This document shows positions 5,993-62,942 of a stretch of 64,000 nucleotides of DNA, piece by piece (position 1 is the stretch's first letter; every line of letters begins with the position of its first letter). This DNA is from Candidatus Omnitrophota bacterium. GTDB lineage: Bacteria > Omnitrophota > Gorgyraeia > Gygaellales > Profunditerraquicolaceae. The notes beneath the pieces are model-generated. The model ran no database searches. It worked only from the letters and a program-made list of their open reading frames with translations, and was not told the DNA's origin. The stretch spans positions 34,252 through 98,251 of the forward strand of contig JBFZAN010000053.1 of assembly GCA_041309005.1 (NCBI GenBank), given 5' to 3'. Position numbers and translations under genes: made by a program.

Positions 5993-6761
5993 AAATATTG
6001 AAGTTGCAAAAAATTATTATAAGATAGTACTAGACGCCGGCCGGGTTGCCGCAAGGGCAAAGCCGGGGCAATTTATTGAGGTGAAAGTTTCGGACGGCGA
6101 GCCTTTGTTAAGAAGGCCCTTCGGCATCCATCGGGCGCAGGAAGGCCGCGTAGAGATCCTTTTCGAGGTAGTCGGTAAGGGCTCAATGCTTTTATCCGGG
6201 ATGCGCCGCGGAGACTGGCTTGATATCATCGGGCCCCTGGGTAACGGATTCGATTATTCCCGGCTCGTTCGCGGAAAACCAGCGGTGTTGGTTGCAGGCG
6301 GCATGGGCGTTGCGCCGTTAGTATTCCTCGCGCAGCGATTAGCGAAGCGTACCTCTCAAAACGCGAAGAATAAAACACTAGTGCTCCTGGGGGCAAGAAC
6401 AAAGGACCACATTCTGTGCGAGCGGGAATTCAAAGATTTTGGCTGTAAGGTGCTGGTCTCAACAGACGACGGCAGCAGGGGCTTTAAAGGTTACGTTTCC
6501 GGTTTATTAGAGGGGCAGGTATCGAAAGAGGACTACGGGTTCTCGACACTGTTCGCCTGCGGGCCGAAGCCCATGCTTAAAGCGGTCAGCCGCATCTGTG
6601 AAACATTTTCGCTGGCCGCCCAGCTCTCTCTGGAAGCACATATGGCCTGCGGCATAGGCGCCTGCCTTGGCTGCGTGGTTGATACGAAAGACGGGTATAA
6701 ACGGGTGTGTAAAGAAGGGCCGGTATTCGAGGCAAACCAGATTCTCTGGGGAAAGGAGTGA
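5961..6761 (+). CDS. pyrK: dihydroorotate dehydrogenase electron-transfer subunit (PyrK)
   Basis: FAD/NAD-binding ferredoxin-reductase fold (RPFGI, GGMGVAP) with C-terminal [2Fe-2S] cysteines CGIGACLGC; precedes a class-1B pyrD. Confidence 0.75.
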   Translation: MIFQTKAKVFKNIEVAKNYYKIVLDAGRVAARAKPGQFIEVKVSDGEPLLRRPFGIHRAQEGRVEILFEVVGKGSMLLSGMRRGDWLDIIGPLGNGFDYSRLVRGKPAVLVAGGMGVAPLVFLAQRLAKRTSQNAKNKTLVLLGARTKDHILCEREFKDFGCKVLVSTDDGSRGFKGYVSGLLEGQVSKEDYGFSTLFACGPKPMLKAVSRICETFSLAAQLSLEAHMACGIGACLGCVVDTKDGYKRVCKEGPVFEANQILWGKE

Positions 6762-47573: not shown

Positions 47574-47613
47574 GATAGGCCGGGTAAGGGCATGTTGCCC
47601 GGCCTATTTATTT
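47574..47613 (+). terminator. rho-independent terminator after folC (10-bp stem ATAGGCCGGG/CCCGGCCTAT then TTTATTTT)
   Basis: Perfect 10-bp inverted repeat 47574-47606 with 13-nt loop, followed by a T-rich tract. Confidence 0.6.
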
Positions 47614-47687
47614 TGAGCCTTCCTCTTTAACTCCTTAATCCAAAGAAGCTTAAAATTCTTTATACAGCAAAGATTTTGATAAAATAC

Positions 47688-47715
47688 TTGACTTTTTTTA
47701 AAAATATACTAAAAT
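47688..47715 (+). promoter_or_regulatory. sigma70-like promoter of pilus locus (-35 TTGACT, 16-nt spacer, -10 TAAAAT)
   Basis: TTGACT 47688-47693, TAAAAT 47710-47715, AGGAGA RBS 7 nt before ATG 47753. Same architecture as the promoter at 62209. Confidence 0.5.
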
Positions 47716-47752
47716 ATGACAAATAGTATTAAACTATATCAGGAGATTTTAG

Positions 47753-48406
47753 ATGGGCATTTTCCGGGCAGCGGAAGTGGCTGGCAAATTGAGGATTTCT
47801 AAGCAAACGCTTTTTCGTTACGAAAAAAAAGGCATTTTTCCTAAACCGAGAAGGAACAGGATCAACCGTTGGCGCGAATATAACGAGGAAGAAATACAAA
47901 AAATGAAACAGATCATGGGCAGGGGTTTTACACTGCTTGAATTGATCATAGTAGTGGTGATAATGGGGATCCTGGCTGCCTTGGCCATCCCGCGCTTTGA
48001 AAGTTTCTATACCGTAAAATTGAAGGGAGCGGTGAACAATGTGGTTTCCGACATCCGCTACGTGCAGCAACTGGCGGCCTCCAGCCATGATACCTACAAG
48101 ATGACTTTTTACGTAACTCCCGCCAACAGGTACGAAGTCCAGAAATCAGACAATAGCTACGCGAAGAACCCTTTTGGCCACGGGGATTTTATAATCAATT
48201 TCACAAATGATCCCCAGTATAAAGGGATCGGTATCGATAGCGCGAATATTAACGGAATGAATATCCTGAGCTTCGATTGGAACGGCACGCCCCGGGATGC
48301 AAACGGGAACACCTTGACAGCCGAGGGGCAGGTAAATCTTTCTTATCAAAATGATTCTTTTTCCGTGAGGGTTACGCCTAATACCGGCTGGGTGAGGGTG
48401 CAGTGA
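47753..48406 (+). CDS. type IV pilin/pseudopilin with in-frame N-terminal MerR-like HTH extension (HTH–prepilin fusion ORF)
   Basis: Residues ~8-50 AEVAGKLRISKQTLFRYEKKGIFPKPRRNRINRWREYNEEEI resemble the MerR/excisionase-type HTH. These are followed in the same frame, with no stop, by a textbook class-III signal MKQIMGRG|FTLLELIIVVVIMGILAALAIP (Gly-1, Phe+1, Glu+5) and a pilin-like beta-rich C-terminus. The reading frame was verified codon by codon. Confidence 0.65.
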   Translation: MGIFRAAEVAGKLRISKQTLFRYEKKGIFPKPRRNRINRWREYNEEEIQKMKQIMGRGFTLLELIIVVVIMGILAALAIPRFESFYTVKLKGAVNNVVSDIRYVQQLAASSHDTYKMTFYVTPANRYEVQKSDNSYAKNPFGHGDFIINFTNDPQYKGIGIDSANINGMNILSFDWNGTPRDANGNTLTAEGQVNLSYQNDSFSVRVTPNTGWVRVQ

Positions 48407-48924
48407 AGAATAAAGGCATCAGCCTGATCGAAATGATCATCACGATCGTCATTCTGGGATTGACGATACCCGTTCTTTTGAATATGTGGTCGGACGTAGC
48501 GTTACGATCAGCCCGTTCGGAAGCGCTGGCAGACGCTCTTTTTTACGGACAGCAATTGATGGAGGAGATACAATCAAAGAAATTCGACCAGCATACCGCC
48601 GCGCCCTGGAGCGATACGCTCGGGCCGGATAACGCGGAGACCAGACTAGGCACAGGGAATGCGGGTTTTAATGACGTTGATGATTACAACGGATATTCCG
48701 ACAGTCCCGCGCCAGGCTACAGCCGCTGCGTGACCGTCGATTATGTCGCGCTCAGCGGTACCGCGTGGAACGGAACATGTTCGCCGAATACTCCGTCAGG
48801 CTGCACCCCTGCGTCGTGCACGGCAGGCAATGTGACCGATTACAAACGTATTACAGTCAGGGTGGATCGTAATGACTCCCTGGTAAAAGATATAGTTCTG
48901 GCGCTGGTGGTAAATCCATTTTAG
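48403..48924 (+). CDS. prepilin-type N-terminal cleavage/methylation domain protein (minor pilin/pseudopilin)
   Basis: MKNKG|ISLIEMIITIVILGLTIPVLL with Glu+5; Cys-rich C-terminal region; GTG start overlapping the upstream stop. Confidence 0.6.
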   Translation: MKNKGISLIEMIITIVILGLTIPVLLNMWSDVALRSARSEALADALFYGQQLMEEIQSKKFDQHTAAPWSDTLGPDNAETRLGTGNAGFNDVDDYNGYSDSPAPGYSRCVTVDYVALSGTAWNGTCSPNTPSGCTPASCTAGNVTDYKRITVRVDRNDSLVKDIVLALVVNPF

Positions 48925-48940: not shown

Positions 48941-49468
48941 TTGCAGGGAAAGCGCGCTCGCTTTAAAAAAGAAGGGGTAACCCTGATAGAGCTGGTGATA
49001 GTGATCGTTATCGTCGGCGTATTAACGGGGGTATCGGCCTTGTATGCCCGGGAGATCGTGGACCTGTGGCGTTTTATTAATTTTCGCAGCGAGATTGTTT
49101 CACAGGGCAGGGCCGCCCTGATGAGGATGGAGAGAGAGATCAGGCAGATCGCGGGTAAGGGGTCGGTATATGCGGCGGGCATTTCGCAATTGCGCTTCCA
49201 TGACATATACGGAAACGATATCCAGTATCAGTGGTTAAGCGACCCCGATCCTTCGATAAAGGGCGCTATCATGCGCAATAACGATATCCTGGTCAAGGGC
49301 GTCGAGAGCCTCGTGTTTAACTATTACGATCAAGATAATAATCCGATCGTTTCTCCTCCTGTCAGTCCGTCGGATACCACCATCAAAAGAATAAGCGTGA
49401 CATTCATAATGCTTGCAGGCGACCAGGAAAAAACGTTGAGCGCGCAGACCTTCCCCCGGAACCTTTGA
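48941..49468 (+). CDS. prepilin-type N-terminal cleavage/methylation domain protein (minor pilin/pseudopilin)
   Basis: ...KKEG|VTLIELVIVIVIVGVLTGV with Glu+5; TTG start 10 nt after the AAGGAGG RBS. Confidence 0.55.
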   Translation: MQGKRARFKKEGVTLIELVIVIVIVGVLTGVSALYAREIVDLWRFINFRSEIVSQGRAALMRMEREIRQIAGKGSVYAAGISQLRFHDIYGNDIQYQWLSDPDPSIKGAIMRNNDILVKGVESLVFNYYDQDNNPIVSPPVSPSDTTIKRISVTFIMLAGDQEKTLSAQTFPRNL

Positions 49469-49504
49469 ACCGGGGCGTTACTTTGATAAAAAAAGGGGGC
49501 CACG

Positions 49505-49777
49505 ATGGCTAAAAAATTTATGTTTGCTTCACTCATCGCGGTATGCCTGTTGCTGGGGATGAGTATGACCCTGAGGGCGCAGAGGCCCCAGGAACAGCCG
49601 GCGGGTACGGATGTCGCAGCGCAGCTTGCCCAGATACGGGCGCAGCTTGAGCAGGTCTCAAATAATGCGGACGCCGCGAACAGGGAAATAGTAAAAAAGC
49701 TGAACGATGTCTTGAGCGATCACGACAAGATATTTAAAGAGCTTGACATTATCAAGGTGAGAGCCAGCCTGAGGTAA
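49505..49777 (+). CDS. small secreted coiled-coil protein
   Basis: Signal peptide FMFASLIAVCLLLGMSMTLRA then helical AAQLAQIRAQLEQV...; 90 aa, sits in the pilus operon. Confidence 0.4.
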   Translation: MAKKFMFASLIAVCLLLGMSMTLRAQRPQEQPAGTDVAAQLAQIRAQLEQVSNNADAANREIVKKLNDVLSDHDKIFKELDIIKVRASLR

Positions 49778-49778
49778 C

Positions 49779-51569
49779 ATGCGTGATGATAAAACGCCGG
49801 AGCGTAAGGCGGTAAGCCGCGGTTCCGGCCCGAATGCAAAAAGCGGCCTGTCACAGTTCCTTTCACTTCTGGGGAGGTTTTTTACCTCTTCGCAGGACGT
49901 GCTGGGGATAGATATCGGCTACAGCTACATGAAAATACTGCAATTGCAGAAGACGGCCAAGGGCTACGTGATCGCGCATTGCATTACGCGCGCCATACCC
50001 CAGAACGTAAAAGAGGACCCCGCAGGGCGCAGGAAATTCATCCAGGGCGCGGTGAAGCAGTTTATTTCCGATTCCAAGATAAAAACCAACCTCGCGCGCC
50101 TCGCTATCTCGGGGAAAGGGGTCTTTATTTTTTCGATAACCGCCCCCGCCGCTATCAGTAAAAAAGACTTAAGGGGGCTGGTGGGCATTGAGTTGAAAAA
50201 ACGCCTCCCCTTTCAATTAGAGATCAGCAATATGTCGTATGATTTTTTTACCACAGGCCAGCAACAGGACGAGAAGGGCGTAAGCCTTCAGGTGACCTGC
50301 GTCTCAGTGGACCGACTGACCATAGACGAACAAATCGGCCTTTTAAAGGACATGGATATAAGTCCGGTTGCCATCAACGCCGTTTCAGACGCGCTGGGCA
50401 ATCTCCTGCCTTATTGCCTGAACGCTCCCGGCGACAGGACCGTAACGCTTTTGGATATAGGCGCGAATACTTCCTTGCTGAATTTTTATAAAGGCAAAAA
50501 CCTGGTGTTTTCGCGCGAAATACCCGTTGGCGGAGAGCATATAACCCGCGCCATGGCCAAGCCCATCCCCGCTTCCTCAGGTACGGTCGAACTTGGCGTC
50601 GAGGATGCCGAGAAGATCAAGCGTAACGTCGGCATCCCCCTGGAAGACGAATCGCGGCAGGATTTCTTGACGGATTACGGCGTATTCCAGGGAGAACAGA
50701 TCTCGACCGCCTTAAGGCCGACGCTGGAGAGGTTGATCCTGGAGATCACCAGGACCGTAAGCTATTATACTAAAACGTTCAAGGCAGAAGATACGGAAGC
50801 ATTGTATATCACCGGCGGCAGCTCGCGCCTGCGGAATATCGATAAGTTCCTGTTATATAACCTCGAGAGGCTCACAAAAGTAGAACACCTTCCCGTATTG
50901 AGCGCGGTGAAGGGCTGGTCAGAGACCGGCGTCTTCAGGCAGGAGCTGGTCATGGAACAGGCTGCGCCTCATCTGGCGGTAGCCTTCGGCCTTTGCCTGG
51001 GAAGCGGAGGGAGAGTAAACCTTTTACCGGTGAAGGAAAAGGTAGAGCAAAAAACAGTTTTCCTGATGCTCCTTTTTAAGGTATTCTTCCCGGTGATCCT
51101 GGTGCTGGTGCTGTCGTGGTACGTCATAAGTATCGTGAACAACCATAAATATAGAAATTTAATCAGGAAGACGAACTCCGATATAAGCCGCCTGGAACCG
51201 ACTGCCTCAAAGGTGAAGGAGTATCTGAATATAAAGACAAAATTTGAAGAGAGAAAAGAGTCGCTGGAAAAAGCGGAAGGCAAACAGCCTCTCTGGTGGG
51301 GCATATTCAAGGAACTAAGCAATATAACACCCCCGGGCGTAGTGCTTACGCAGATAACCGCCGTAGCCGGGACCGAGCCGAAACAGCTGCGCCTGGCGGG
51401 CAGGATCGTCTCCCGGTATACGGTAGTGGATGTGGAGCTTTCGCAATACCTTATCGCGCTGGAAGAATCGCCTTATTTCAGGGATGTCGTATTGGTCTCC
51501 AGCGAAAAAGACCTGTATTCTCCGATGCCGGCTGCGAAATTCGAGATCACCTGCACGCTGGTGTATTGA
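49779..51569 (+). CDS. pilM: type IV pilus assembly protein PilM fused to PilN
   Basis: N-terminal actin-like ATPase fold (VLGIDIGYSYMKILQL..., ...TLLDIGANTS..., ...YITGGSSRL) = PilM; then a TM helix VFLMLLFKVFFPVILVLVLSWYVISIV and a periplasmic PilN-like domain, all in one 596-aa ORF. Confidence 0.75.
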   Translation: MRDDKTPERKAVSRGSGPNAKSGLSQFLSLLGRFFTSSQDVLGIDIGYSYMKILQLQKTAKGYVIAHCITRAIPQNVKEDPAGRRKFIQGAVKQFISDSKIKTNLARLAISGKGVFIFSITAPAAISKKDLRGLVGIELKKRLPFQLEISNMSYDFFTTGQQQDEKGVSLQVTCVSVDRLTIDEQIGLLKDMDISPVAINAVSDALGNLLPYCLNAPGDRTVTLLDIGANTSLLNFYKGKNLVFSREIPVGGEHITRAMAKPIPASSGTVELGVEDAEKIKRNVGIPLEDESRQDFLTDYGVFQGEQISTALRPTLERLILEITRTVSYYTKTFKAEDTEALYITGGSSRLRNIDKFLLYNLERLTKVEHLPVLSAVKGWSETGVFRQELVMEQAAPHLAVAFGLCLGSGGRVNLLPVKEKVEQKTVFLMLLFKVFFPVILVLVLSWYVISIVNNHKYRNLIRKTNSDISRLEPTASKVKEYLNIKTKFEERKESLEKAEGKQPLWWGIFKELSNITPPGVVLTQITAVAGTEPKQLRLAGRIVSRYTVVDVELSQYLIALEESPYFRDVVLVSSEKDLYSPMPAAKFEITCTLVY

Positions 51570-51577
51570 GGTGGGAA

Positions 51578-52198
51578 ATGATAACGCTTAAGAAAACAAG
51601 CAAATTTATGCAGGCCGGGCTCCTGTGCCTTGTCTTTTTTTTCGTTCTCGTCGCGCTGTATTTTGCCTGGGGGAGATCTCTTTTTAAGGCCGAGAAGAAG
51701 TTGAAAACGGAATTCAGCCTCAAGCAATCAGAGCTCAAAGAGCAGGAGGTGTTGATCAGGACCGTTCCTGACCCTAAGAAGGCCATCGAAGAGATCGAAA
51801 AAAAGGCGGATGAATTCAAAGATATCGAGGTCGGGAAACGGCAGGTCCCCCGGCTCATCCATCTGCTGGGCAGCGCGGCCGCGGAACACAACATAAATAT
51901 TGTTTCCATAAGGCCGCGGGAGGACATAAAAGTCGCGAATGAGAATCTTCCGTCGGGAGTGACCAAGGTGTATGTCGAGATGGTGCTTGGCTGTCCTTAC
52001 CAGGTGCTGGGCGGGTATTTAGCCGACCTGGGCAAGCTGCCGGTTACCTTTATCATTGAGTCGGTCTCCATAGCGCCCAGGGAAGAAACGGCAACGCCTG
52101 CTCCCGACGCGAAGAAGGCGGCAGTAAGCAAGGGAGAAAGGCCGCAAGAGCTCTTGATAACCCTGCTTTTAAGCACCTATATGATCTATGAAATATAA
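51578..52198 (+). CDS. pilO: type IV pilus assembly protein PilO-like
   Basis: Single N-terminal TM LLCLVFFFVLVALYFAW, coiled coil, periplasmic domain; operon position after PilMN. Start at ATG 51578 after the GAGGTGGG RBS. Confidence 0.55.
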   Translation: MITLKKTSKFMQAGLLCLVFFFVLVALYFAWGRSLFKAEKKLKTEFSLKQSELKEQEVLIRTVPDPKKAIEEIEKKADEFKDIEVGKRQVPRLIHLLGSAAAEHNINIVSIRPREDIKVANENLPSGVTKVYVEMVLGCPYQVLGGYLADLGKLPVTFIIESVSIAPREETATPAPDAKKAAVSKGERPQELLITLLLSTYMIYEI

Positions 52199-52215
52199 GG
52201 TACGGCCGTACGCAT

Positions 52216-52665
52216 ATGGATAAACAGCAAAAACAACTTATTATAATCGGGGTCCTGGTGGTAGTGTTGGCGCTGGCGCTCGTGAGTAATTTAAAAAAGA
52301 AGCCCAAGAAAAAAGCAGCCCCCTTGCCCAAGCCGGATGCGGCGTCTTTGGCCAAATCCGCGCCTGTGGTCAGCGCCGCGCCTGCCGCGGATGCGGGCGT
52401 GCTGGGCGAGCAGATCGAGCGCACGAAGCTTACATGGGGACGAGATCCCTTTTCCGTTAATACGGACAAAACGTTCCAGTTAAGCGAGCTTAAGCTCCAG
52501 GGCATCTCCTTCGGCACAGATAAAAAAGGTTTCGCATTTATTAATGGCGAGATTGTGCAAAAGGGTGATAAAATAGGAGATTACGAGGTCATAGATATCG
52601 AAAAAGAAAGAGTGCTTCTCAAGAGAGGCAGCCAGGATTTTTACCTGGTTTTCCCTGGAGAATAG
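52216..52665 (+). CDS. pilP: PilP-like pilus assembly protein
   Basis: N-terminal TM, Pro/Ala-rich linker, C-terminal beta domain LKLQGISFGTDKKGFAFINGEIVQKGDKIGDYEVIDIEKERVLLKRG typical of PilP/GspC HR domains; immediately precedes the secretin. Confidence 0.5.
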   Translation: MDKQQKQLIIIGVLVVVLALALVSNLKKKPKKKAAPLPKPDAASLAKSAPVVSAAPAADAGVLGEQIERTKLTWGRDPFSVNTDKTFQLSELKLQGISFGTDKKGFAFINGEIVQKGDKIGDYEVIDIEKERVLLKRGSQDFYLVFPGE

Positions 52666-52693
52666 CGGGACAAATAGGCAAAGAGGTCGAAAA

Positions 52694-54094
52694 ATGAAGA
52701 GAAAATTGGCGTGTGTCTGTATTATGGCTTTGATGTGTCTTAGCGCCTGCGTTCATCCGCCCCTGTGCGCGCAGGAGAAGGAAAACCTGGTGATCGAATC
52801 CCTGGAGTTCAGGGAGGTCGATATCAAAGATGTCTTGCGGCAGCTCGCCAAGCAATACAACCTCAACATCGTATTTTCTGAGGCGGTGAAAGGGTTGGTC
52901 ACCGTGCAGCTTAACAACGTGAGCATCGAGCAAGCGCTGGATTCGATCATCACCGTGAACGGCTTCGCGTATACCAAGAAAGAGAACGTCTATAAAGTGA
53001 CCACGCAGGAAGAGGCGCATAAGCAAGGCAAACAGACAAAGCTCTTTAAATTAAATAACGCCGATTCGGCTAAACTGAAGACCACCTTAGAAAAGTCTTT
53101 GACCCCGGAAGGCTCTATTGAGGCGGACAGCCGTTCCAATTCCATAATCATCACGGATTCTCCCGCGGTCATAAGCAAGATAGAGGCGATGATCCCCGAT
53201 CTGGATGAACTTACGCCCCAGGTATTGATCGAGGCGCGCCTGATTGAGGCGTCGCTCAACGACAATGACAAGCTGGGCTTTGATTGGTCTACGACGGTCG
53301 CGGCGTCCGGCTCTTCGCGCCCCATCACGTTTCCTTTTAGCGGCAAGGGCAATTATAACCCCGGGACGTTTACTCCCCTGAACACGACAGCCGGTTTCAC
53401 GGGGCCGTACGCCTTTCCTTCCGCGGCCGCGGAAAATTTCACCTTTGGCACGCTTGATTTTACTTCCCTGAAGGCTGTGCTCGACATGTTAAAGACGCGC
53501 AAAAAGACCAAGCTCGTCGCCAATCCCAGGATAGTCACCCTTAATAACCAGAACGCCTCCATTAATGTCGGTAAAGTCCTGGCGTTGCCTACCTACGAGA
53601 GGAACGAAACAACCGGAAAGCTGGAGATCACCGGATGGACTAATTATAATGTAGGCGTCAATTTAAGCGTCACTCCGCAGGTAAGCCCCGACGGCCATAT
53701 CAAGCTGAAATTAAAGCCCGAGGTAAGCAGCCTCATCGGGTACGCTTCTCAAAGGGACGGCGTCAATGAGGGCCCTATCACTTCGTCCCGGACGGCGCAA
53801 ACCGAAGTGCAGATGAGAGACGGCCAAACGGTCGTGATCGGAGGGCTGGTCAAGGAAGAATCATTCACCATCACAAAGAAGATACCCGTGCTGGGGGATA
53901 TCCCCATCCTCGGGGCTTTGTTTACGCGAAAGGAAGTCGGCTCGACGGAGAACCCTACCGAAAAAACCGACTTGCTAATCTTTGTGACAGCCCGTATAAT
54001 TAAAGAAAGCGACGCGCCACTGCTCGCAAACGACAGCGCTCTGGTGACTTCCGGGAGGAGGCCGTTTAAACTGGACATGAGAAAGATCAAATGA
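52694..54094 (+). CDS. pilQ: type IV pilus secretin PilQ
   Basis: Signal peptide; N0/N1-type domains (VIESLEFREVDIKDVLRQLAKQYNLNIVF...); secretin core QTVVIGGLVKEE...KIPVLGDIPILGALFT. Confidence 0.85.
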   Translation: MKRKLACVCIMALMCLSACVHPPLCAQEKENLVIESLEFREVDIKDVLRQLAKQYNLNIVFSEAVKGLVTVQLNNVSIEQALDSIITVNGFAYTKKENVYKVTTQEEAHKQGKQTKLFKLNNADSAKLKTTLEKSLTPEGSIEADSRSNSIIITDSPAVISKIEAMIPDLDELTPQVLIEARLIEASLNDNDKLGFDWSTTVAASGSSRPITFPFSGKGNYNPGTFTPLNTTAGFTGPYAFPSAAAENFTFGTLDFTSLKAVLDMLKTRKKTKLVANPRIVTLNNQNASINVGKVLALPTYERNETTGKLEITGWTNYNVGVNLSVTPQVSPDGHIKLKLKPEVSSLIGYASQRDGVNEGPITSSRTAQTEVQMRDGQTVVIGGLVKEESFTITKKIPVLGDIPILGALFTRKEVGSTENPTEKTDLLIFVTARIIKESDAPLLANDSALVTSGRRPFKLDMRKIK

Positions 54095-55449
54095 CGGATA
54101 AGAAATTCTTTGTTTTGCTGGTGGCGACGATAGGGATATTCCTTGCGCTTTTTTACTCCGCGAGGAGCGCCAGGCGTACCCAGACCGCCCAAACGCCGCC
54201 GGCGGGCAGCTCGCTGCCCCAGGCCACGATACCGATGCTGGAATCAAGGATGCAGCAGTTAAAGGACGCAGTCTCAACCTACGGCCAGCTAAACGTTTCG
54301 CTGCATAAGGCCTTCAACGAAGAAAAGGAAAAGTCGCTTGAGGTACGGGAAAAAGCGATGAGCCTGCAGGAAGAATTAAAAAATGTCACCGCGCAAAAAG
54401 ACGCCCTCTCAAAAGAATTGTCCGACACCAGGACGAAGCTGGAAATGACCCAACCTTTAAAGCAGAAGCTTATCCAGATGGAGACTGCGTTATCGGGATT
54501 GAACTTCAGCCAGGATATGCAGGGTGAGGTGGTGGCCCGGCTGGACACGCTGATCAAGGAGCTGGATTCCATCGACCAGCAGATGCCGTATCTGCTCAAT
54601 GAAAACATGGCCTTTAAAGTGCAGGTGCAGAACCTTTCCGATCTTCTTGGCCGCAAAGAGCAGGAACTGGCTGTACTGAAACAGCAGGCAGAAGACGCAA
54701 AAGTCAAAAATCAAACGCTCAGCAAGAACGTGGACGCGCTCTTAGAGCAGCTTATGGCGGCCAGCAAAGGGAGGCAGGCGCTGGAGCAGAAGGCCGCTGA
54801 TCTGGAAAAGGTCGCTTCGAATCTAAAAAAAGCCGGCTATTTCCTGAAGGAAAAATTAGAAAAGACGCGCAAAGAGCTCGGGGAAGTCAAGGAAAGAGAG
54901 GCAAGGGCCGCTCAGGAAAAACAGGAGGCTTTGGGCGGGCTGGGCGCAAGGCAGGAGCACCTGGCAGCGCTTGAAACCAGAAACCAGGCATTGGAACAGG
55001 AACTGGCGTCGCTCAAGGAAAAACTGGAGACGCTCAGTAGGGAATACGCGGGTTTCAAGGACGAACACGCAACCGCGCAGCTGGCGATCAGGCAGACTGA
55101 AGCGGAATTAAAGAAAAACAGGGATGAAATATCCTATTTTAAGGATAAGCTTGCCGACGCGGATACGAGGTTCATCGAACTTCAGTCAAAATATAACGAG
55201 GTGAAAAAAGAATCCGCTGTATTGCGGGAACAGTACGTGAATGTACAGCTGGAAAGGGAGAGGTTAAGGGATGAATTACAGCGGGCGCGGATGAATTTGA
55301 GCGAACTGCAGAATAAATTCCAGAAAATAGGCACTATGTTTATGTCGCAACCGCCGCCGCAGATGGCTTCGCCCGAAGAAGGGGCCTCTTCTCGCAGGAA
55401 GGTCGACGTGGAGCTTCTTCCCAAGACGAAAGAGGGATCTGAACAATGA
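54091..55449 (+). CDS. membrane-anchored long coiled-coil protein
   Basis: N-terminal TM FFVLLVATIGIFLALF followed by ~400 aa of heptad-rich sequence (many EL/QL/KEL repeats). Confidence 0.45.
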   Translation: MTDKKFFVLLVATIGIFLALFYSARSARRTQTAQTPPAGSSLPQATIPMLESRMQQLKDAVSTYGQLNVSLHKAFNEEKEKSLEVREKAMSLQEELKNVTAQKDALSKELSDTRTKLEMTQPLKQKLIQMETALSGLNFSQDMQGEVVARLDTLIKELDSIDQQMPYLLNENMAFKVQVQNLSDLLGRKEQELAVLKQQAEDAKVKNQTLSKNVDALLEQLMAASKGRQALEQKAADLEKVASNLKKAGYFLKEKLEKTRKELGEVKEREARAAQEKQEALGGLGARQEHLAALETRNQALEQELASLKEKLETLSREYAGFKDEHATAQLAIRQTEAELKKNRDEISYFKDKLADADTRFIELQSKYNEVKKESAVLREQYVNVQLERERLRDELQRARMNLSELQNKFQKIGTMFMSQPPPQMASPEEGASSRRKVDVELLPKTKEGSEQ

Positions 55450-56183
55450 GCCGCGATGCGCTTATATTGTGCGCTGCCGTGTGCGTGTCCGTTTCTGCCG
55501 CAATACGGGCCTATGGCGCGCCGGCCGAGGCTGGCCTGCCACCTGGCCGCATGATGCCGGCGCCCGCTGCCGACGCGGCGATAGCCGTTACGCAGGATGC
55601 CGGGTTGACCAGGCAGGAAAAGATAGAAAAGGCGCGCCAGCTTTATTCTCACGGGGAACAGCTTCTGGAGGACGGGAATTTTGTCGCCGCAGACGACGCG
55701 CTTAAAAGAGCGCAACGGTTACTCGAGGAATCCATACCCCGGCAAGCGCCGCTGCGTTTAAACGAAGCGCCTGCGTCCGATGATGACGGGGTGGCCGTGG
55801 AAGAACGGGTATGGCCCGCATCCAAGGCGTGGGAACTGTCTCAAGAAGGCGCTTCAGAAGAAGCGGTCGGCTATTACCTGAAGGCGATCGATCTTGAACC
55901 CGGGCGCGCCGACCTGTATTATAATCTGGGGGTAGAGTATTTAAAGACCGGTCAATATGCGTTTGCGGTAAAGGCCTTTAAAGAGTCGCTGCGCCTTGAC
56001 CCGAAGGACGCGTTCTCCTGTTATAATTTGGGGGTGCTCTACGAAGATTATCTTAAGGAGAAAAAACAGGCGCTGGAATATTACCGGAAGTTCCTGAAGC
56101 TTGCGCCCAACGCGGAGGAAGCGCCCGAAGTAAAGCGCTGGATACAGGAACTGATCAACTATTATAGCGAGGATGAACGATAA
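55446..56183 (+). CDS. TPR-repeat protein with signal peptide (PilF/Tgl-like pilotin candidate)
   Basis: Signal peptide LILCAAVCVSVSAA; TPR motifs (AVGYYLKAIDLEPGRADLYYNLGVEYLKTGQYAFAVKAFKESLRLDPKDAFSCYNLGVLYE...). Confidence 0.55.
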   Translation: MSRDALILCAAVCVSVSAAIRAYGAPAEAGLPPGRMMPAPAADAAIAVTQDAGLTRQEKIEKARQLYSHGEQLLEDGNFVAADDALKRAQRLLEESIPRQAPLRLNEAPASDDDGVAVEERVWPASKAWELSQEGASEEAVGYYLKAIDLEPGRADLYYNLGVEYLKTGQYAFAVKAFKESLRLDPKDAFSCYNLGVLYEDYLKEKKQALEYYRKFLKLAPNAEEAPEVKRWIQELINYYSEDER

Positions 56184-57876
56184 AGACCTGGAAGGTTTAT
56201 TATTATCTACGCATCTCTTAGACGAGACAGAGCTGCATAAGGCTCTGGACGAGATGAGGAAATTAAAGAGGCCGCTGGAAAAAATAGTGGTCGATATGCG
56301 CCTTGTTGACCGCGCGAGCCTCTACGAAGCGATAGCCAAGCACCAGGGGTTCAGTTACGTCGCGCTGGATTCCGTCCAGTATGACGAGACATTGACCAGG
56401 GTTATGCCCGAGGGTCTGGCGCGCCAGACGCAATCCGTTCCCTTCAGGACCGCTAACGATACTCTTCACGTCGCGATGGTTGAGCCCACCGATCTCTACG
56501 CAATCGATCAGATCCAGATGCATACCGGTACGCCCATCGAGGTATATCTTTCCAGCCCCCAGGAAATAGAAGAGGCGCAAAGCAGGCTGTATGCGGGCAA
56601 GAGCGCTCCCAGCGCGAAGAAGCTCATGGAGGGGATCACGAAAGTCTCTTCCGGCGTCGCCAAAGAGGCGGCCACCGAAGGGACTTCGATCATCAAGCTC
56701 GTAGATTTGGTTATATCCCAGGCAGTGCACGACAGGGCCTCGGACATCCATATTGAGCCGGAACAGGATATGCTGCGCATCAGGTTCAGGATCGACGGCA
56801 TCCTGCACGAGATACCCTCTCCTCCAAAAGAATGGGAGGCGGCGATTATTTCCCGGGTCAAGGTTTTATCGAATATGGACATCGCCGAGAGCAGGGTCCC
56901 TCAGGACGGCCACTTTCAGGCAAAGGTCGATGACAAGATAGTGGATTTCCGCGTCGCCACCATACCCACCATATACGGGGAGAACCTGGTCATGAGGCTC
57001 CTGGATACCGCCTCGGTAATGATCGGGCTGGAAAAGCTGGGGTTTGCAACGGAGTTTGAATTAAAGGCCTATGAGAAGCTGATCAATATGCCTTATGGGA
57101 TAATCCTTTCGACCGGCCCCACGGGAAGCGGCAAGACCACGACGCTTTATTCCGCGTTAATGAGGATAAATACCGTCGACAAACACATCATTACTATCGA
57201 GGACCCGGTGGAGTACCGCCTGGGGCTGATACGGCAGATCCAGGTGAACCCCAAGGCGGGGATTACCTTCGTCAACGGCCTGAGGGCGATTTTACGCCAG
57301 GATCCCGACGTGATCATGGTGGGGGAGATCAGGGATCTGGATACGGCGGTCATCGCGGTGCAGGCAGCGCTCACCGGCCATCTGGTGTTTTCCACGCTGC
57401 ACACAAACGACGCAGCGTCTGCGGTAACGCGCCTGGTAAACATGGGGGTTGAGCCGTTTTTGATCTCCGCCTGTCTGATCGGCGTGCTCGCGCAGCGCTT
57501 AGTAAGAAAGATATGCGAGCATTGCAAGGAGCCTTACGAACCGCCGGCGCTTATTATGCGAAGATGGGGTTTGGATAAAAAGAAAGGGCTCCTGCTCTAC
57601 CATGGCCGGGGCTGCGACCACTGTAAGGGTACCGGCTTCCGGGGGCGCGCCGGCATATTCGAGCTGTTGGTTGTCGACGATGAGATCCGGGAGATGATAA
57701 TTCAGGGAGCTTCCGCCATGGCGCTGCGCAAAAAAGCCCAAGTCAAAGGCATGAAGCTTTTAAGCGATGACGGATTAAGCAAAGTTTTGTCCGGCGTGAC
57801 TACCATCGAAGAGGTCTCCAGGGTCTGCGCCGAGCAGTCAGACGCTGTCCCGGATGATACGGAAGAGAAAGAATAA
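56173..57876 (+). CDS. pilB: type IV pilus assembly ATPase PilB (GspE family)
   Basis: N-terminal T2SSE_N domain, Walker A GPTGSGKTTT, Asp box, Walker B ...DPDVIMVGEIRD, His box, tetracysteine CEHC...CDHC. Confidence 0.9.
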   Translation: MNDKDLEGLLLSTHLLDETELHKALDEMRKLKRPLEKIVVDMRLVDRASLYEAIAKHQGFSYVALDSVQYDETLTRVMPEGLARQTQSVPFRTANDTLHVAMVEPTDLYAIDQIQMHTGTPIEVYLSSPQEIEEAQSRLYAGKSAPSAKKLMEGITKVSSGVAKEAATEGTSIIKLVDLVISQAVHDRASDIHIEPEQDMLRIRFRIDGILHEIPSPPKEWEAAIISRVKVLSNMDIAESRVPQDGHFQAKVDDKIVDFRVATIPTIYGENLVMRLLDTASVMIGLEKLGFATEFELKAYEKLINMPYGIILSTGPTGSGKTTTLYSALMRINTVDKHIITIEDPVEYRLGLIRQIQVNPKAGITFVNGLRAILRQDPDVIMVGEIRDLDTAVIAVQAALTGHLVFSTLHTNDAASAVTRLVNMGVEPFLISACLIGVLAQRLVRKICEHCKEPYEPPALIMRRWGLDKKKGLLLYHGRGCDHCKGTGFRGRAGIFELLVVDDEIREMIIQGASAMALRKKAQVKGMKLLSDDGLSKVLSGVTTIEEVSRVCAEQSDAVPDDTEEKE

Positions 57877-57879
57877 AAA

Positions 57880-59109
57880 ATGCCTACGTACGTATATAAA
57901 GCGGTAGACCAATTGGGTAAGCTTGTGAAGGGCGAGATGGACGCGGTAAGCGAAGTGGAGTTGACCACGCAGCTAGCCAAAATCGGGTATCTGCCCGTAA
58001 GCATAAGCTTCAAGACCAAAGGGGGAAAATCAAAAGAAGCCGCAGAAAGCTTTCTGAAGAGCGGGTATAAGGTTGATACCCAGGCGCTGGTGGTATTCAC
58101 CCGTCAGTTCGCGACGATCATAAAAGCCGCAGTCCCCATACTGGAAGGCCTTGGGGTATTGGCTGAGCAGGCGGAGGACCCGGCGCTCAAAGAGGTGCTG
58201 CGTAAAGTCATCCATGATGTTGAGGGCGGCGCGAGCCTCTCCCAGGCGATGGCAAAACACCCGGGCGTGTTTTCCAAGCTGTATATCAATACGGTGATCG
58301 CGGGGGAAAGCGCCGGAGTGTTGGACAAGGTGCTGCTAAGGCTCGCCAAGATGCTGGAAAATGATCAGGAGACGCGGTCCAATATCCAGTCTGCGTTACG
58401 CTACCCGATCATGGTGGTCATTGCGATGCTGGTGGCGGTTGTCGTATTGTCGGTATTTGTTATCCCCCAGTTTGCCAAGATCTATACGAGCGCCAAAGTG
58501 GCGTTGCCGCTGCCTACGCAGGTAATGATATTCATAAGCAATATTCTCATCCATCACTGGTTCATCCTCGTGCCTGTTGTGATAGGCGTAATTTTTGCCT
58601 TCCAGTGGTACATTAATACAACCGCGGGCAGGTGGCTCTGGGACGGCCTTAAATTCAAAGTGCCGATCGTCAGCAAGCTGTACACCAAAATGACGATGTT
58701 GCGCTTTGCCTCGATGCTCAGCGTCCTTTATCAGGCGGGGCTTCCCGTGCTCAGCACGCTGGATATCGTGGGGATGACTATCGGCAACGTGGTCCTTTCC
58801 AGGGAAGTGGACGTGATAAAACGCGATGTCGCCGACGGTAAAGGTATTTCAGGCGCGGTGTTGAACAGCCAGTTTTTCCCCAGGCTCGTCGGGTATATGA
58901 TCGCGATAGGAGAAAAAAGCGGCCAGCTTCCGATGATGCTGGATTCCCTGTGCGAATACTTCGATCTGGAAGTGAAGACCGTCACCAAGAACCTGACTAC
59001 CATGATCGAACCGGTGATGACCGCCGTATTAGGCACGGTCGTGGTCGGGATGGCGTTATCGATCTTTCTGCCGTTGTGGAACATGATACAGGTAATCAAG
59101 GGGGGATAA
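57880..59109 (+). CDS. pilC: type IV pilus platform protein PilC (GspF family)
   Basis: Two GspF repeats (..GESAGVLDKVLLRLAKMLE.. and ..GEKSGQLPMMLDSLCEYF..), three TM helices. Confidence 0.9.
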   Translation: MPTYVYKAVDQLGKLVKGEMDAVSEVELTTQLAKIGYLPVSISFKTKGGKSKEAAESFLKSGYKVDTQALVVFTRQFATIIKAAVPILEGLGVLAEQAEDPALKEVLRKVIHDVEGGASLSQAMAKHPGVFSKLYINTVIAGESAGVLDKVLLRLAKMLENDQETRSNIQSALRYPIMVVIAMLVAVVVLSVFVIPQFAKIYTSAKVALPLPTQVMIFISNILIHHWFILVPVVIGVIFAFQWYINTTAGRWLWDGLKFKVPIVSKLYTKMTMLRFASMLSVLYQAGLPVLSTLDIVGMTIGNVVLSREVDVIKRDVADGKGISGAVLNSQFFPRLVGYMIAIGEKSGQLPMMLDSLCEYFDLEVKTVTKNLTTMIEPVMTAVLGTVVVGMALSIFLPLWNMIQVIKGG

Positions 59110-59122
59110 CCAAAAAAAGGAT

Positions 59123-59980
59123 ATGGCGGGAATGGTGATTTCTATTGCGATAGTACTGGTCGTTTCTGCTGCGTTCGCTTTTTACGCGGTGGCGGTCGAC
59201 CGCCGCTGGAAGAAGAAAATAGAGGAAAAAACAAACCTGGTCAAGGAAGCCGAGGCGCAGATAGTGCATATGGAAAAAATGGCTTCCCTGGGCACGCTTG
59301 CCGCCGGGATCGCGCATGAAATAAACAACCCTTTAGGATTTTTGATCAGCAATCTCCAGAATCTCAAGGAATATATCCAGAAGCTGGAAGGAAAAATTTC
59401 TCTCGAAGAAAAAGAAAATCAGGTACTGCTCGATGATTTTAAGGCGATAGCCCAGGAGTCGCTCGATGGCGCGAAGCGCATAAAAAAGATCGTCTCGGAC
59501 CTGCGAACTTTTTCCCGCAGGAGCGAAACGCAGCATATCACTATCGACGTCAACCAGATCCTGGAAACCGTATTATCGATCGTCTGGAACGAGATAAAAT
59601 ATAAGGTCACGGTGGTAAAGGATTACCAGGCGAGCTCTACTACTTTGGGGGATCCGACCCAGCTGTCCCAGGTATTCCTGAACCTTGTCATCAACGCCAG
59701 CCAAGCTATCGCGGAGAAGGGCTCGATCAGCATCTCGACTTCGGAAGACGCGAACAATATTTACATCAAGATCGCCGACACCGGAAGCGGTATTGCGCCT
59801 GAAGTGCTGCCTAAGATATTCGACCCGTTCTTTTCCACAAAAAAAAGCACCGGGCTTGGCCTTTCGGTAACGTATAATATCGTTAAGCATCACGCAGGAG
59901 ATATACAGGTAGAAAGCAAAGTGGGCGCCGGCACGACCTTTACCGTTTGGCTGCCGAAAATAGCCAAACAAAACGAATAG
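59123..59980 (+). CDS. sensor histidine kinase (single TM, HisKA + HATPase_c)
   Basis: TM ISIAIVLVVSAAFAFYAVAV; H-box LAAGIAHEINNPL; N box LNLVINASQA; G boxes DTGSGI...GLGLSV. Confidence 0.8.
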   Translation: MAGMVISIAIVLVVSAAFAFYAVAVDRRWKKKIEEKTNLVKEAEAQIVHMEKMASLGTLAAGIAHEINNPLGFLISNLQNLKEYIQKLEGKISLEEKENQVLLDDFKAIAQESLDGAKRIKKIVSDLRTFSRRSETQHITIDVNQILETVLSIVWNEIKYKVTVVKDYQASSTTLGDPTQLSQVFLNLVINASQAIAEKGSISISTSEDANNIYIKIADTGSGIAPEVLPKIFDPFFSTKKSTGLGLSVTYNIVKHHAGDIQVESKVGAGTTFTVWLPKIAKQNE

Positions 59981-61279: not shown

Positions 61280-62116
61280 GTGCAGGATTTTGAAGAAAAG
61301 CTTATCCAGGGCAAATGGCTTACCAGCCAGAATTATTCTATCGCGAAGAAAGAAGCCGGGAGGCTTGGCAGGTCGATCTGGTCTACCATGGTCAGGCTCG
61401 GTTTTCTTTCAGAAGAGGATATCTCTACCTTTTTTGCCGAAGAGAGCGGCATCCCCCACGCAAGGCTTTCCGATTATGAAATGGAGGAAGGAGTCGTGCG
61501 TCTCGTCAGCGAGGAGTTTTGCCGAAAGCACAGCGTGATCCCTGTTTTTAGAATCCAGGATACGTTATTCGTCGCCTTCAGTAATCCGCTTGATGCCTCT
61601 TGCATAGATAGCCTGGTTAAGATGACCGGCCTTGCTGTCGAACCTTTGATAACTTCAAAGCGCGCTATCTCTACCGCCCTGGATACCCATTACGGTCCTG
61701 ACGATAACGACTTCCTGATAGAGCAGTTCTTATTCAGGAAGAATCCGTTGCAGGGGATCCCCTTCAAAAGGGAAGCCGAGAGGATCAATTTAGAGATCCC
61801 GGTATCCCTTAAGGTAGTGGATAGCTCTGTCAGATTACATTACTCTTCGCCGATAGAGGGCTTTACGCGCAATATTTCGGTAAACGGGACGGCCCTGAGC
61901 CTTCAGGTGTTTTTGTTTCTGCCCAGGGATATCGCGGTTTCTCTTGAATTTAAGCCTACGCAGACTCTCTTTTCTTCAGGAGAAAGCATAGGCGCCAAGG
62001 GCCAGATCGTATATTGCCAGATGGAAAAAGGCCAGCGGTATTTGCTGGGTGTTCGATTTACTGATATAGCGAGTGAAAGCTTAAACACGCTTATTCGCCT
62101 GGCAAGAAGAAAATAA
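61280..62116 (+). CDS. T2SSE_N (GspE/MshE N-terminal-like) + PilZ two-domain protein
   Basis: N-terminal GspE_N-like fold (LGRSIWSTMVRLGFLSEEDISTFF...KHSVIPVFRIQDTLFVAFSNPLD...); C-terminal PilZ-like beta-barrel (REAERINLEIPVSLKVVD...RNISVNGTAL...). Confidence 0.6.
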   Translation: MQDFEEKLIQGKWLTSQNYSIAKKEAGRLGRSIWSTMVRLGFLSEEDISTFFAEESGIPHARLSDYEMEEGVVRLVSEEFCRKHSVIPVFRIQDTLFVAFSNPLDASCIDSLVKMTGLAVEPLITSKRAISTALDTHYGPDDNDFLIEQFLFRKNPLQGIPFKREAERINLEIPVSLKVVDSSVRLHYSSPIEGFTRNISVNGTALSLQVFLFLPRDIAVSLEFKPTQTLFSSGESIGAKGQIVYCQMEKGQRYLLGVRFTDIASESLNTLIRLARRK

Positions 62117-62208
62117 ATCAAGATCGGAATTATCTTCGTCTTTCCATCTTACTAAGTAATTGTAAGTAAAAGGGTAATGGGCAGCAAAGATAATAACAAA
62201 GATAAATC

Positions 62209-62237
62209 TTGACAATTTATATTTGATGACTTAAAAT
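62209..62237 (+). promoter_or_regulatory. sigma70-like promoter (-35 TTGACA, 17-nt spacer, -10 TAAAAT)
   Basis: TTGACA 62209-62214, TAAAAT 62232-62237; upstream of the stand-alone HTH gene; mirrors the promoter at 47688. Confidence 0.45.
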
Positions 62238-62302
62238 TATACCAAAGTATATCAAATATGGTCAGACTTGATCTAGGGAGAATAAGGGTTTCGTATAATT
62301 AA

Positions 62303-62494
62303 ATGGAAAAAAACAGGTTATATACAATCCAGGAAGTCGCAGAAAAGTTGGGTATTTCCAAGCAAACTCTTTTCCGTTACGAAAAGAAAGGCATTTTCCC
62401 GAAACCTAAACGGAACACGATCAATCGCTGGCGTCAATATACGGAAGAAGATATTAATAAGCTTAAAGAAATAATAAGGGGAAGTATTGAATAA
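62303..62494 (+). CDS. small MerR-like HTH protein (63 aa), paralogue of the N-terminal extension of the pilin at 47753
   Basis: MEKNRLYTIQEVAEKLGISKQTLFRYEKKGIFPKPKRNTINRWRQYTEEDINKLKEIIRGSIE; the 41-aa core is ~80% identical to the fused copy (ISKQTLFRYEKKGIFPKP[RK]RN.INRWR.Y.EE.I.K.K.I). Confidence 0.6.
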   Translation: MEKNRLYTIQEVAEKLGISKQTLFRYEKKGIFPKPKRNTINRWRQYTEEDINKLKEIIRGSIE

Positions 62495-62942
62495 GGGAGG
62501 CGTATTTCTTTTACTCCTGTGTTTCGGTATGCTTGCCGGCTGCGAAAGAGAAGCGGCGGTAAGCGTTAAAAAGAAGTCCGCCAAGACAAAAGGGAATAAG
62601 GCGGAAATGGCAGCTCACAGCGACGCTGAAGCGGGAGCATCCGGCGCGAAGCCGGCTATCATCGAGTCTTCAATGAGGACTAACCCGTTTTTGACCAGGG
62701 AGGAAGAAGACCTCTATAAGAAACAGGATACGCGAAGGCCTGTTAATTTTGACCTTTCCGCTATATTCTATGCCCCTCCCAAAAGCAAGGCTGTGATCGC
62801 AGGCAGGATCTACAAAGAAGGCGATATCGTTGACAATAAGGAAATCGTGAAGATCAATACCGGCGACGTTATTTTAAAAGACGGGCAGGGCGAATATATC
62901 CTGCGCCTGAAAACAGTGTTAAGGAGCGGTCCGCAGGGATGA
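62487..62942 (+). CDS. lipoprotein with PilP-like C-terminal beta domain
   Basis: Lipobox LLLLCFGMLAGC; the C-terminus VNFDLSAIFYAPPKSKAVIAGRIYKEGDIVDNKEIVKINTGDVILKDGQGEYILRLK follows the same pattern as the PilP-like gene at 52216. Confidence 0.45.
   Translation: MNKGGVFLLLLCFGMLAGCEREAAVSVKKKSAKTKGNKAEMAAHSDAEAGASGAKPAIIESSMRTNPFLTREEEDLYKKQDTRRPVNFDLSAIFYAPPKSKAVIAGRIYKEGDIVDNKEIVKINTGDVILKDGQGEYILRLKTVLRSGPQG

Follow-up and report, generated by a model that had tools for sequence, protein, structure and literature searches.

Prepilin leaders are viewed, to our knowledge, as short disposable tags, and we know of no function for the piece that is cleaved off. Prepilins are inserted into the membrane via the signal recognition particle (SRP)/Sec route, with the leader in the cytoplasm and the N-terminal part of the first helix (α1-N) as the transmembrane segment; the leader is then removed by prepilin peptidase, whose cut after Gly(−1) is made from the cytoplasmic side (PMC4471445). 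Minor pilins of the FimU/GspH class (EpsH, XcpU) have a class III signal with Gly(−1) and Glu(+5), a long N-terminal helix and a β globular domain, and the gene heads a minor-pilin operon followed by PilMNO, a secretin, PilB and PilC. A 64,000-nucleotide (nt) stretch of DNA from a Candidatus Omnitrophota bacterium (assembly GCA_041309005.1, contig JBFZAN010000053.1, positions 34,252 to 98,251 of the forward strand; hereafter the window) contains an open reading frame (ORF), at 47753–48406, whose product resembles this class in all of these respects but whose leader is a folded DNA-binding domain of 58 residues.

Two other groups of described systems are close to this locus. Minor pilins of Pseudomonas aeruginosa inhibit expression of their own operon via FimS–AlgR (PMC5979040). 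In that system, as in PilA–PilS/PilR, the supply of pilin feeds back on pilin transcription, but it does so by way of a sensor kinase and a response regulator that are proteins of their own, whereas in the present locus the pilin precursor would itself contain the regulator. The second group is that of tethered factors released by proteolysis (RsiV/RseA, pro-sigma-K, SREBP, Notch), in which a DNA-directed activity is held on a single transmembrane segment until a protease frees it; the release of an activity into the cytoplasm by a membrane-embedded protease, regulated intramembrane proteolysis, is a general principle (PMC4183432). In the Omnitrophota protein the order of the domains, the charge of the leader, the structural model and the usual topology of prepilins (PMC4471445) likewise put the DNA-binding domain in the cytoplasm, next to one transmembrane segment. 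It would differ from these systems in that the protease would be prepilin peptidase, the other product would be a structural subunit of a filament, and release would accompany routine maturation with no signal-triggered site-1 cut.

A literature search, outside which most subscription journals lay, gave no prepilin with a helix–turn–helix (HTH) or transcription-factor leader and no regulator freed by prepilin peptidase. A profile of the HTH plus the prepilin signal was also searched against 1.84 billion representative proteins, and matches to both parts came only from the clade of the fusion (P0007, P0168, P0169 and P0189, the last with a decayed HTH). Other pilins with long leaders (P0306, P0314, P0277 and P0305) were without the HTH. 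A first-pass annotation of this DNA, made from the letters alone, had been aware of no described pilin with an HTH leader. Minor pilins, mini-MerR domains and membrane-tethered factors are all known kinds; their combination, and the mechanism that it implies, are new.

The ORF (+ strand) is an unbroken frame of 217 codons with an ATG start. An in-frame TAG at 47750–47752 lies directly 5′ of the ATG at 47753 and, therefore, the fusion frame has no upstream extension. The protein has three parts: a MerR-type winged helix of 58 residues, the canonical site at which prepilins are cleaved and methylated (GRG↓FTLLE) and the body of a minor pilin of the FimU/GspH type. Domains were called with Pfam and NCBIfam profiles and their curated cut-offs. 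MerR_1 (PF13411) matched residues 5–54 (E 2.7e-8, 34.3 bits against a cut-off of 21.6, profile positions 2–49 of 69) and N_methyl (PF07963) matched residues 57–78 (E 3.9e-6, 26.6 bits against 21.2); TIGR02532 was also matched (29.7 bits against 16.3). The C-terminal part scored above the cut-off for the IV_pilin_GFxxxE domain and gave partial matches to ComGD, GspG and GspH, below the equivalog cut-offs. Translation and the two Pfam profiles thus confirm the single uninterrupted frame, HTH first and prepilin signal second, that had been read in the first pass, and the profile check proposed there for the HTH placed it above the curated threshold. Two figures from that annotation need to be corrected: the leader up to Gly(−1) has 58 residues rather than about 63, and the start codon of the internal MKQIMGRG is at 47903–47905 (Met51), not at 47909.

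An AlphaFold2 model of the 217-residue protein, built from the family alignment, had a mean predicted local distance difference test (pLDDT) score of 91.6; the lowest block of ten residues, with a score of 80, was at the junction. The model has a strand at residues 3–5, helices at 6–12 and 17–25, a β wing, a helix starting at residue 45 and a β-sheet domain in the C-terminal part. A profile search of PDB sequences matched pilins (positions 54–86) or MerR proteins (positions 3–56), never both in one protein.

The leader (residues 1–58, 47753..47926, + strand) ends with Gly-Arg-Gly and has a net charge of about +10, counted on the translation; residues 17–25 form its recognition helix. When the model was compared with the PDB using Foldseek, the N-terminal part matched NmlR (5d90/5d8c) with a root-mean-square deviation (rmsd) of 1.3–1.8 Å across 51–59 residues, and also BldC (6amk, template modelling (TM) score 0.72), RacA and the excisionase RdfS. 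In the comparison with BldC, TM scores normalised to BldC were 0.64–0.73, the rmsd was about 1.9 Å and the sequence similarity was 27–29%. The leader stops after helix 3, without the coiled-coil dimerisation helix and effector-binding region of MerR, and the scores for all NCBIfam equivalogs were far under their cut-offs (e.g. MerR, 20.3 against 150.85). BldC is itself a 68-residue MerR-like regulator with neither dimerisation helix nor effector region (PMC5859096), and BldC, RacA and RdfS are examples of stand-alone MerR-like domains of 55–70 residues that bind DNA (PMC5859096 and the PDB matches).

As modelled, the leader is a mini-MerR of the BldC type. It shares with BldC, the RacA domain and the RdfS/Xis excisionases a size of about 55–70 residues, a MerR-type HTH with a wing and the absence of any coiled coil or effector domain; those proteins are made free and soluble, whereas one copy here is the N-terminus of a membrane protein. 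With the classical regulators (MerR, CueR, NmlR, CadR) it shares the N-terminal DNA-binding domain, as seen in profile positions 2–49 of MerR_1 and in the fit to NmlR, but helix 4, the long dimerisation helix and the effector site are all missing from it.

The fusion is conserved among relatives. When 5.8 billion protein clusters were searched, about 40 proteins of 210–228 residues matched over their full length (44–63% identity, 99–100% coverage), all carrying MerR plus N_methyl/GspH and all from Candidatus Omnitrophota. At the DNA level, HTH and pilin were in one frame in 13 independently assembled loci, with a leader of 58 residues, or 61 in one subgroup. Neither the 40 or so proteins nor the 13 loci contained a stop or frameshift between the two parts, which the first-pass annotation had thought orthologous loci might reveal. 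The consensus of the HTH across the fused relatives, KLGISKQTLxRYEKKGIxPxxxRNxINxWREY, was conserved at least as well as the pilin part.

Selection on the parts was compared as mean pairwise values over nine diverse fused loci. Amino-acid identity was 67% in the HTH, 66% in the signal/α1-N region (for which identity alone was calculated) and 47% in the pilin globular domain. Non-synonymous (pN) and synonymous (pS) divergence were 0.20 and 0.83 in the HTH and 0.36 and 0.77 in the globular domain, synonymous sites being saturated in both. The lower pN of the HTH indicates that this domain is translated and that purifying selection acts on it more strongly than on the pilin body. Thus the fusion is almost certainly a real, translated and selected product, and the comparison of relatives indicates that its full-length form is the main product under selection.

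One divergent relative, P0189 (211 residues), has kept the in-frame extension while its HTH signature has decayed (EVTRKLDISKGVLLYYKKWVISYF..., with no INxWREY). DNA binding thus looks to have been lost secondarily in a single lineage.

The predicted prepilin-peptidase site, Gly58↓Phe59 (47924..47929, + strand), was located by family conservation and by the N_methyl and TIGR02532 matches. The signal region reads GRG↓FTLLELIIVVVIMGILAALAIP, in line with the class III pattern of a leader ending in Gly(−1) and a stretch of about 21 hydrophobic residues after it with Glu at +5. When 38 fused family members were aligned, position −1 was Gly in 37 (and Ala in the other), +2 was Thr in 37 and +5 was Glu in all 38. 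What would remain after cleavage, residues 59–217 (47927..48403, + strand), is a hydrophobic α1-N helix followed by a FimU/GspH-type β domain: in Foldseek this part matched FimU of P. aeruginosa (4ipu, E 1.3e-4, TM score to target 0.64) and EpsH of Vibrio cholerae (2qv8, TM score 0.72), and PF12019 (GspH) is annotated on several homologs. The type IV pilin called in the first pass is indeed a pilin, but its Foldseek matches and place in the operon make it one of the minor pilins, of FimU/GspH type, and not a major pilin. So-called modular pilins bear their added modules at the C-terminus, outside the cell, and not in the leader (PMC8179133).

Unfused orthologs occupy the same first position in the operon as the fusion gene. 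The order of the pilus genes in the window recurs in locus L001, which is fused, and in L002, an Omnitrophota locus in which the ortholog has a 16-residue leader (MLIPNNELQKARFQNS↓FTLIE) and no HTH upstream. Further unfused orthologs were found in L008–L015, L024–L026, L028, L030, L033 and L035, and no separate HTH gene was found beside the unfused orthologs near L002, L008–L015 and others. Judged from these loci, the fusion is a derived state within one pilin orthogroup, and the fused protein keeps the FimU/GspH slot of the operon. Since it is the sole FimU/GspH-type subunit there, it is probably needed as a pilin. Gly(−1) and Glu(+5) are retained, as are the fold of a pilin and the slot in the operon, which suggests that processing still takes place and that the product still serves as a minor pilin, and the basic leader fits the positive-inside rule, with the leader in the cytoplasm. 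It is likely, given these conserved features, that prepilin peptidase cuts the precursor after Gly58.

Two unfused proteins have Ser in place of Gly at the predicted −1 position, which is unusual for bacterial prepilins: the L002 protein encoded at 5698–6216 (RFQNS↓FTLIE) and P0035 (MVMKKS↓FTVIE).

A search with the leader (tblastn against the window and related loci) revealed a free-standing paralog of 63 residues, MEKNRLYTIQEVAEKLGISKQTLFRYEKKGIFPKPKRNTINRWRQYTEEDINKLKEIIRGSIE, encoded at 62303..62494 (+ strand) at the head of a second secretin-type operon. Over 53 residues it shares 70% identity with the leader, with no difference in the recognition helix (ISKQTLFRYEKKGIFPKP) or at the start of the wing. 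Its gene overlaps by 8 nt the next ORF (62487–62942, 151 residues, with a lipoprotein-like N-terminus). The stand-alone family comprises at least 193 Omnitrophota proteins, and 88 of the 120 listed have exactly 63 residues. Stand-alone genes are first cistrons, overlap the next ORF by 8 nt and are followed by STN/Secretin_N and Secretin genes; stand-alone and fused genes occur together on contigs of 434,960, 250,406 and 79,656 bp.

The ends of the two forms are closely alike. The stand-alone consensus finishes with EIiRG and three more residues, the fused one with IlgRG↓F; in the window, the paralog ends with IIRG plus three residues, and IMGRG↓F stands at that place in the fusion. The piece freed by cleavage would therefore match the native free protein almost exactly. 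A neighbour-joining tree was made from 38 fused leaders and 120 stand-alone proteins; in it all fused leaders fell into one clade, free of stand-alone proteins, which points to one fusion event, retained since. A plausible pre-fusion state is seen in L040 (3001–3668), where a 63-residue HTH gene is followed after 81 nt by a separate prepilin of 131 residues and then by response regulator, CheC and CheA-like genes. This arrangement also suggests that, in Omnitrophota, several pilin or filament operons begin with a mini-MerR gene.

An unusual architecture was noted in three other proteins, P0170 (623 residues), P0193 (1015 residues) and P0203 (1224 residues), which the mini-MerR profile matches 7–10 times in tandem. 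P0170 has eight such matches and, after them, a hydrophobic C-terminal region.

The fusion gene and the paralog share a promoter module. Upstream of the fusion gene there is a sigma-70-type promoter (47688..47715, + strand) with 10/12 matches, the best in the region: a −35 of TTGACT (47688–47693), a 16-nt spacer and a −10 of TAAAAT (47710–47715). The Shine–Dalgarno (SD) sequence AGGAG (47741..47745, + strand) lies 7 nt before the ATG and is found ahead of an ATG or GTG start in every fused locus. The good ribosome-binding site and promoter credited to ATG 47753 in the first pass are both borne out. Between the −10 and the SD lies an AT-rich element, CAAATAGTATTAAACTATATC (47720..47740, + strand), which contains ATAGT-ATTAA-ACTAT and is a candidate operator for the mini-MerR. 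The module of the paralog (62208..62265, + strand; nhmmer E 6.9e-7) consists of TTGACA (62209–62214), 17 nt, TAAAAT (62232–62237) and then CAAAGTATATCAAATATGG (62243–62261).

In all fused loci the −35 (CTTGAC/CTTGC) and −10 (TAAAAT) are kept. About 27 nt, from just after the −10 through the SD, are conserved as aCAAATAnTATTAAnnTATAyCAGGAG (window 47719–47745); the columns CAAATA..ATTAA...ATA.CAGGAG are invariant in nine fused loci in which third codon positions are just 41% identical. The 19-nt core occurs once in each fused locus (13/13), at a fixed distance, in no unfused locus and once in the 64-kb window. Promoters of stand-alone genes have CTTGACA, 17 nt, TAAAAT or TAGAAT, 5 nt and then CAAATA..ATTAAGTATATTCAG or a shorter variant of it; examples of the element are CAAATATCATTAAGTATATTCAG (L041, stand-alone) and CAAATATCATTAAGATATATCAG (L021, fused). 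The searches for the element covered about 370 kb, made up of the window and related loci. An nhmmer profile of the module matched only upstream of HTH-encoding genes, including 47687–47742 and 62208–62265, and neither this profile nor a pattern search of the window nor a mismatch scan of the loci gave extra copies of the operator beyond the HTH-encoding genes in the 370 kb.

A reading of the element as an RNA structure is weak: RNAalifold gave −2.1 kcal/mol and one pair with a double change, and left the AT-rich element unpaired. The ATAGT/ACTAT inverted repeat shows compensatory change in L021 (ATATC/GATAT), but several other loci have lost the pairing, and so neither a hairpin nor a strict palindrome is supported. 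From its conservation and position we infer, as the simplest reading, that the element is a protein-binding DNA site over the transcription start, and the mini-MerR encoded just downstream is the obvious candidate to bind it.

The mechanism by which MerR distorts promoters acts on an over-long spacer between −35 and −10. Here the spacer is 16 nt at the fusion gene of the window and about 17 nt elsewhere, and the candidate site is downstream of the −10, not inside a spacer of 19–20 nt as in the classical MerR case. Promoter distortion was rejected on this spacer length and on the absence of the dimerisation helix.

A different inverted repeat was seen in the unfused promoter of L002 (5585–5650). 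It is a perfect 7-nt repeat, ATTACCT-15 nt-AGGTAAT, 3′ of a TTGACC/TAGAAT promoter, and is a candidate operator different from the element of the fused loci.

Taken together, the results lead us to favour, with some reserve, a scheme in which prepilin peptidase would free a BldC-like mini-regulator that acts on the shared promoter element. Translation from ATG 47753 would give a 217-residue precursor whose leader is a whole DNA-binding domain. This precursor would be inserted in the inner membrane like other prepilins, with the basic N-terminal domain in the cytoplasm, and a cut after Gly58 would yield a normal minor pilin, able to prime pilus assembly, and a free mini-MerR. The freed domain and the paralog would then bind the AT-rich element at their own and the paralog operon promoters, so that output of the minor-pilin operon would be fed back via membrane insertion and processing of its first product.

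The individual steps of this scheme differ in probability. That the released domain binds the shared element and autoregulates is, from the pattern of conservation, an evenly balanced proposition; if it does so it probably acts as a repressor, because the element overlaps the transcription start. A wider proposal, for which the chances are slightly short of even, is that the peptidase serves as a signalling protease: each maturation of a first minor pilin would free a regulator which, with the paralog, binds a shared operator at the heads of at least two type-IV-filament operons, the minor-pilin/assembly operon and the second secretin operon. Transcription of the pilus machinery would then be governed directly by the capacity for insertion and processing. 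The stoichiometric coupling to pilin production envisaged in the first pass would concern a low-abundance minor pilin and not the bulk pilin.

Several observations weigh against this scheme. Described prepilin leaders are hydrophilic and have 6–26 (to about 30) residues (PMC4471445); the present leader, a folded winged helix of 58 residues or 61 in one subgroup, is outside that range. With a folded domain only two residues away, the scissile bond might be hard for the peptidase to reach, and in the AlphaFold2 model the helix from residue 45 is drawn unbroken with the pilin α1 helix to residue 111. No GxGDxK motif of a prepilin peptidase was found in any membrane ORF of the 64-kb window; two neighbouring genes encode ordinary prepilins, and the organism must therefore have such a peptidase. 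Met at −8, the start of an ordinary leader, is kept in 29 of 38 members, which leaves room for a second, short product. As for the element, its dyad symmetry is partial and no direct-repeat pattern was established; it could be conserved for other reasons (another regulator, an initial-transcribed-sequence signal or a translation signal), and its co-occurrence with the HTH is partly due to common descent of a promoter-plus-HTH cassette.

The alternative that survives best, though it is unlikely, is that the protein is an uncleaved tethered regulator similar to ToxR or CadC, with an HTH that binds DNA at the membrane and a periplasmic pilin-like domain that acts, unassembled, as sensor or partner. 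A cytoplasmic HTH, one transmembrane helix and a periplasmic domain are the topology of a one-component membrane regulator, the modelled helix is continuous from the HTH into the membrane segment, and a folded leader of 58 residues is without precedent as a substrate of the peptidase. Nevertheless, the residues for cleavage, methylation and assembly are near-invariant (37/38 at −1 and 38/38 at +5), in other loci the operon likewise starts with this gene in its unfused form, which has an ordinary leader, and the operon has no other FimU/GspH-type subunit, so the fused protein is probably needed as a pilin.

A somewhat less likely alternative is that the gene gives two products, most of the pilin being made from Met51 (47903..47905, + strand; a possible secondary start) with an ordinary 8-residue leader, and the full-length protein being minor or the upstream frame serving mainly to deliver the HTH. 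The ATG at −8 in 29 of the 38 members fits this, as does the weak GAGGA noted in the first pass 13 nt upstream of the internal ATG, which is indeed present in the window; no SD is conserved ahead of Met(−8) across the fused loci, however, and the purine-rich stretch before Met51 is dictated by conserved E-E-D codons. The nine other members have Leu (seven, with CTC in L021) or Phe (two) at −8, a position at which helix 3 of MerR expects a hydrophobic residue, and with no stop in the frame ribosomes starting at 47753 always make the fusion. A short Met51 product cannot be the main point of the gene. The first-pass alternative that combined an internal start with an HTH read through by accident fails in the same way, on the conservation of the HTH, the loss of Met(−8) in 9/38, the lack of a conserved SD and the existence of the 63-residue paralog.

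An improbable third alternative is that the leader is a docking or tethering module and no transcription factor, which would, for example, keep the locus or nucleoid close to the pilus machine or hold back assembly until cleavage. The structural matches do include RacA, a MerR-like protein that anchors the chromosome, but the recognition helix and wing are near-invariant and identical to those of a soluble 63-residue family that is unable to tether, and the conserved DNA element is at the promoters of exactly the genes that encode the HTH. Finally, an artefact, in which a small HTH gene and a pilin gene were joined by an error of sequencing or assembly or by recent, pseudogene-like read-through, has a vanishingly small chance and is excluded by the in-frame fusion across relatives and 13 loci: HTH and pilin genes do occur as separate neighbours in L040, but the same junction recurs in dozens of independent JGI, ENA, NCBI and Logan assemblies at 44–63% identity, with a fixed leader length and with the fused HTHs as a single clade.

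If prepilin peptidase does act as a signalling protease that releases a regulator, a cleaved prepilin leader would for the first time have a functional role. Prepilin peptidase is a GxGD-type aspartyl protease, and the system would be a bacterial counterpart of Notch- and SREBP-type release by a protease of that type. The substrate range of the peptidase would be widened to a folded leader of 58 residues, with a possible signalling role for the enzyme. The family suggests a new and very direct coupling of the assembly of a surface machine to gene expression. We know of no axenic culture of Omnitrophota; the system is compact (a 58-residue domain and a promoter of about 60 bp), testable in E. 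coli with synthetic genes, and offers a way into Omnitrophota regulation. It might also serve in synthetic biology as a module in which a transcription factor is released on membrane insertion and processing.

The fusion gene is the first of a cluster of pilus genes. It is preceded by a hairpin, ATAGGCCGGG-13 nt-CCCGGCCTAT followed by TTATTTT (47575..47614, + strand, read from the sequence), 30 nt past a folC-like ORF with its stop at 47544. This is a probable terminator that would part the pilin operon from the upstream genes; a simple terminator scan did not list it, since its loop is longer than 8 nt. Downstream, all on the + strand, N_methyl matches and a motif scan identified two minor prepilins, with the leaders MKNKG↓ISLIEM (48403–48924) and ...KKEG↓VTLIEL (48941–49468), and Pfam identified a PilM–PilN fusion of 596 residues (49779–51569; the same fusion is present in L001 and L002), a secretin (52694–54094), coiled-coil and tetratricopeptide repeat (TPR) proteins (within 49779..59109), a PilB-type ATPase with an MshEN domain (56173–57876) and PilC (57880–59109). 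The ORF that adjoins PilC (59123–59980) encodes a histidine kinase and not a prepilin peptidase.

A two-domain MshEN–PilZ protein is encoded beyond the kinase (61280–62116, + strand). With the MshEN domain of PilB it makes two predicted modules for binding cyclic di-GMP beside the histidine kinase.

A gene for a PilX/GspK-like DUF7305 protein of about 350 residues follows the third minor pilin in L001 (9701–10756) and in L002. It is absent from the window at 49469–49778, which holds just an ORF of 90 residues (49505–49777).

In several related loci, among them L001 (6781–7872, − strand) and L002 (4336–5418, − strand), the upstream neighbour of the minor-pilin operon is a divergently oriented gene for a ComFB–CheR_N–CheR fusion. 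ComFB has recently been described as a receptor family for cyclic dinucleotides (c-di-NMP) (PMC12448109). In the window the upstream neighbours of the fusion gene are purH- and folC-like genes and not ComFB–CheR.

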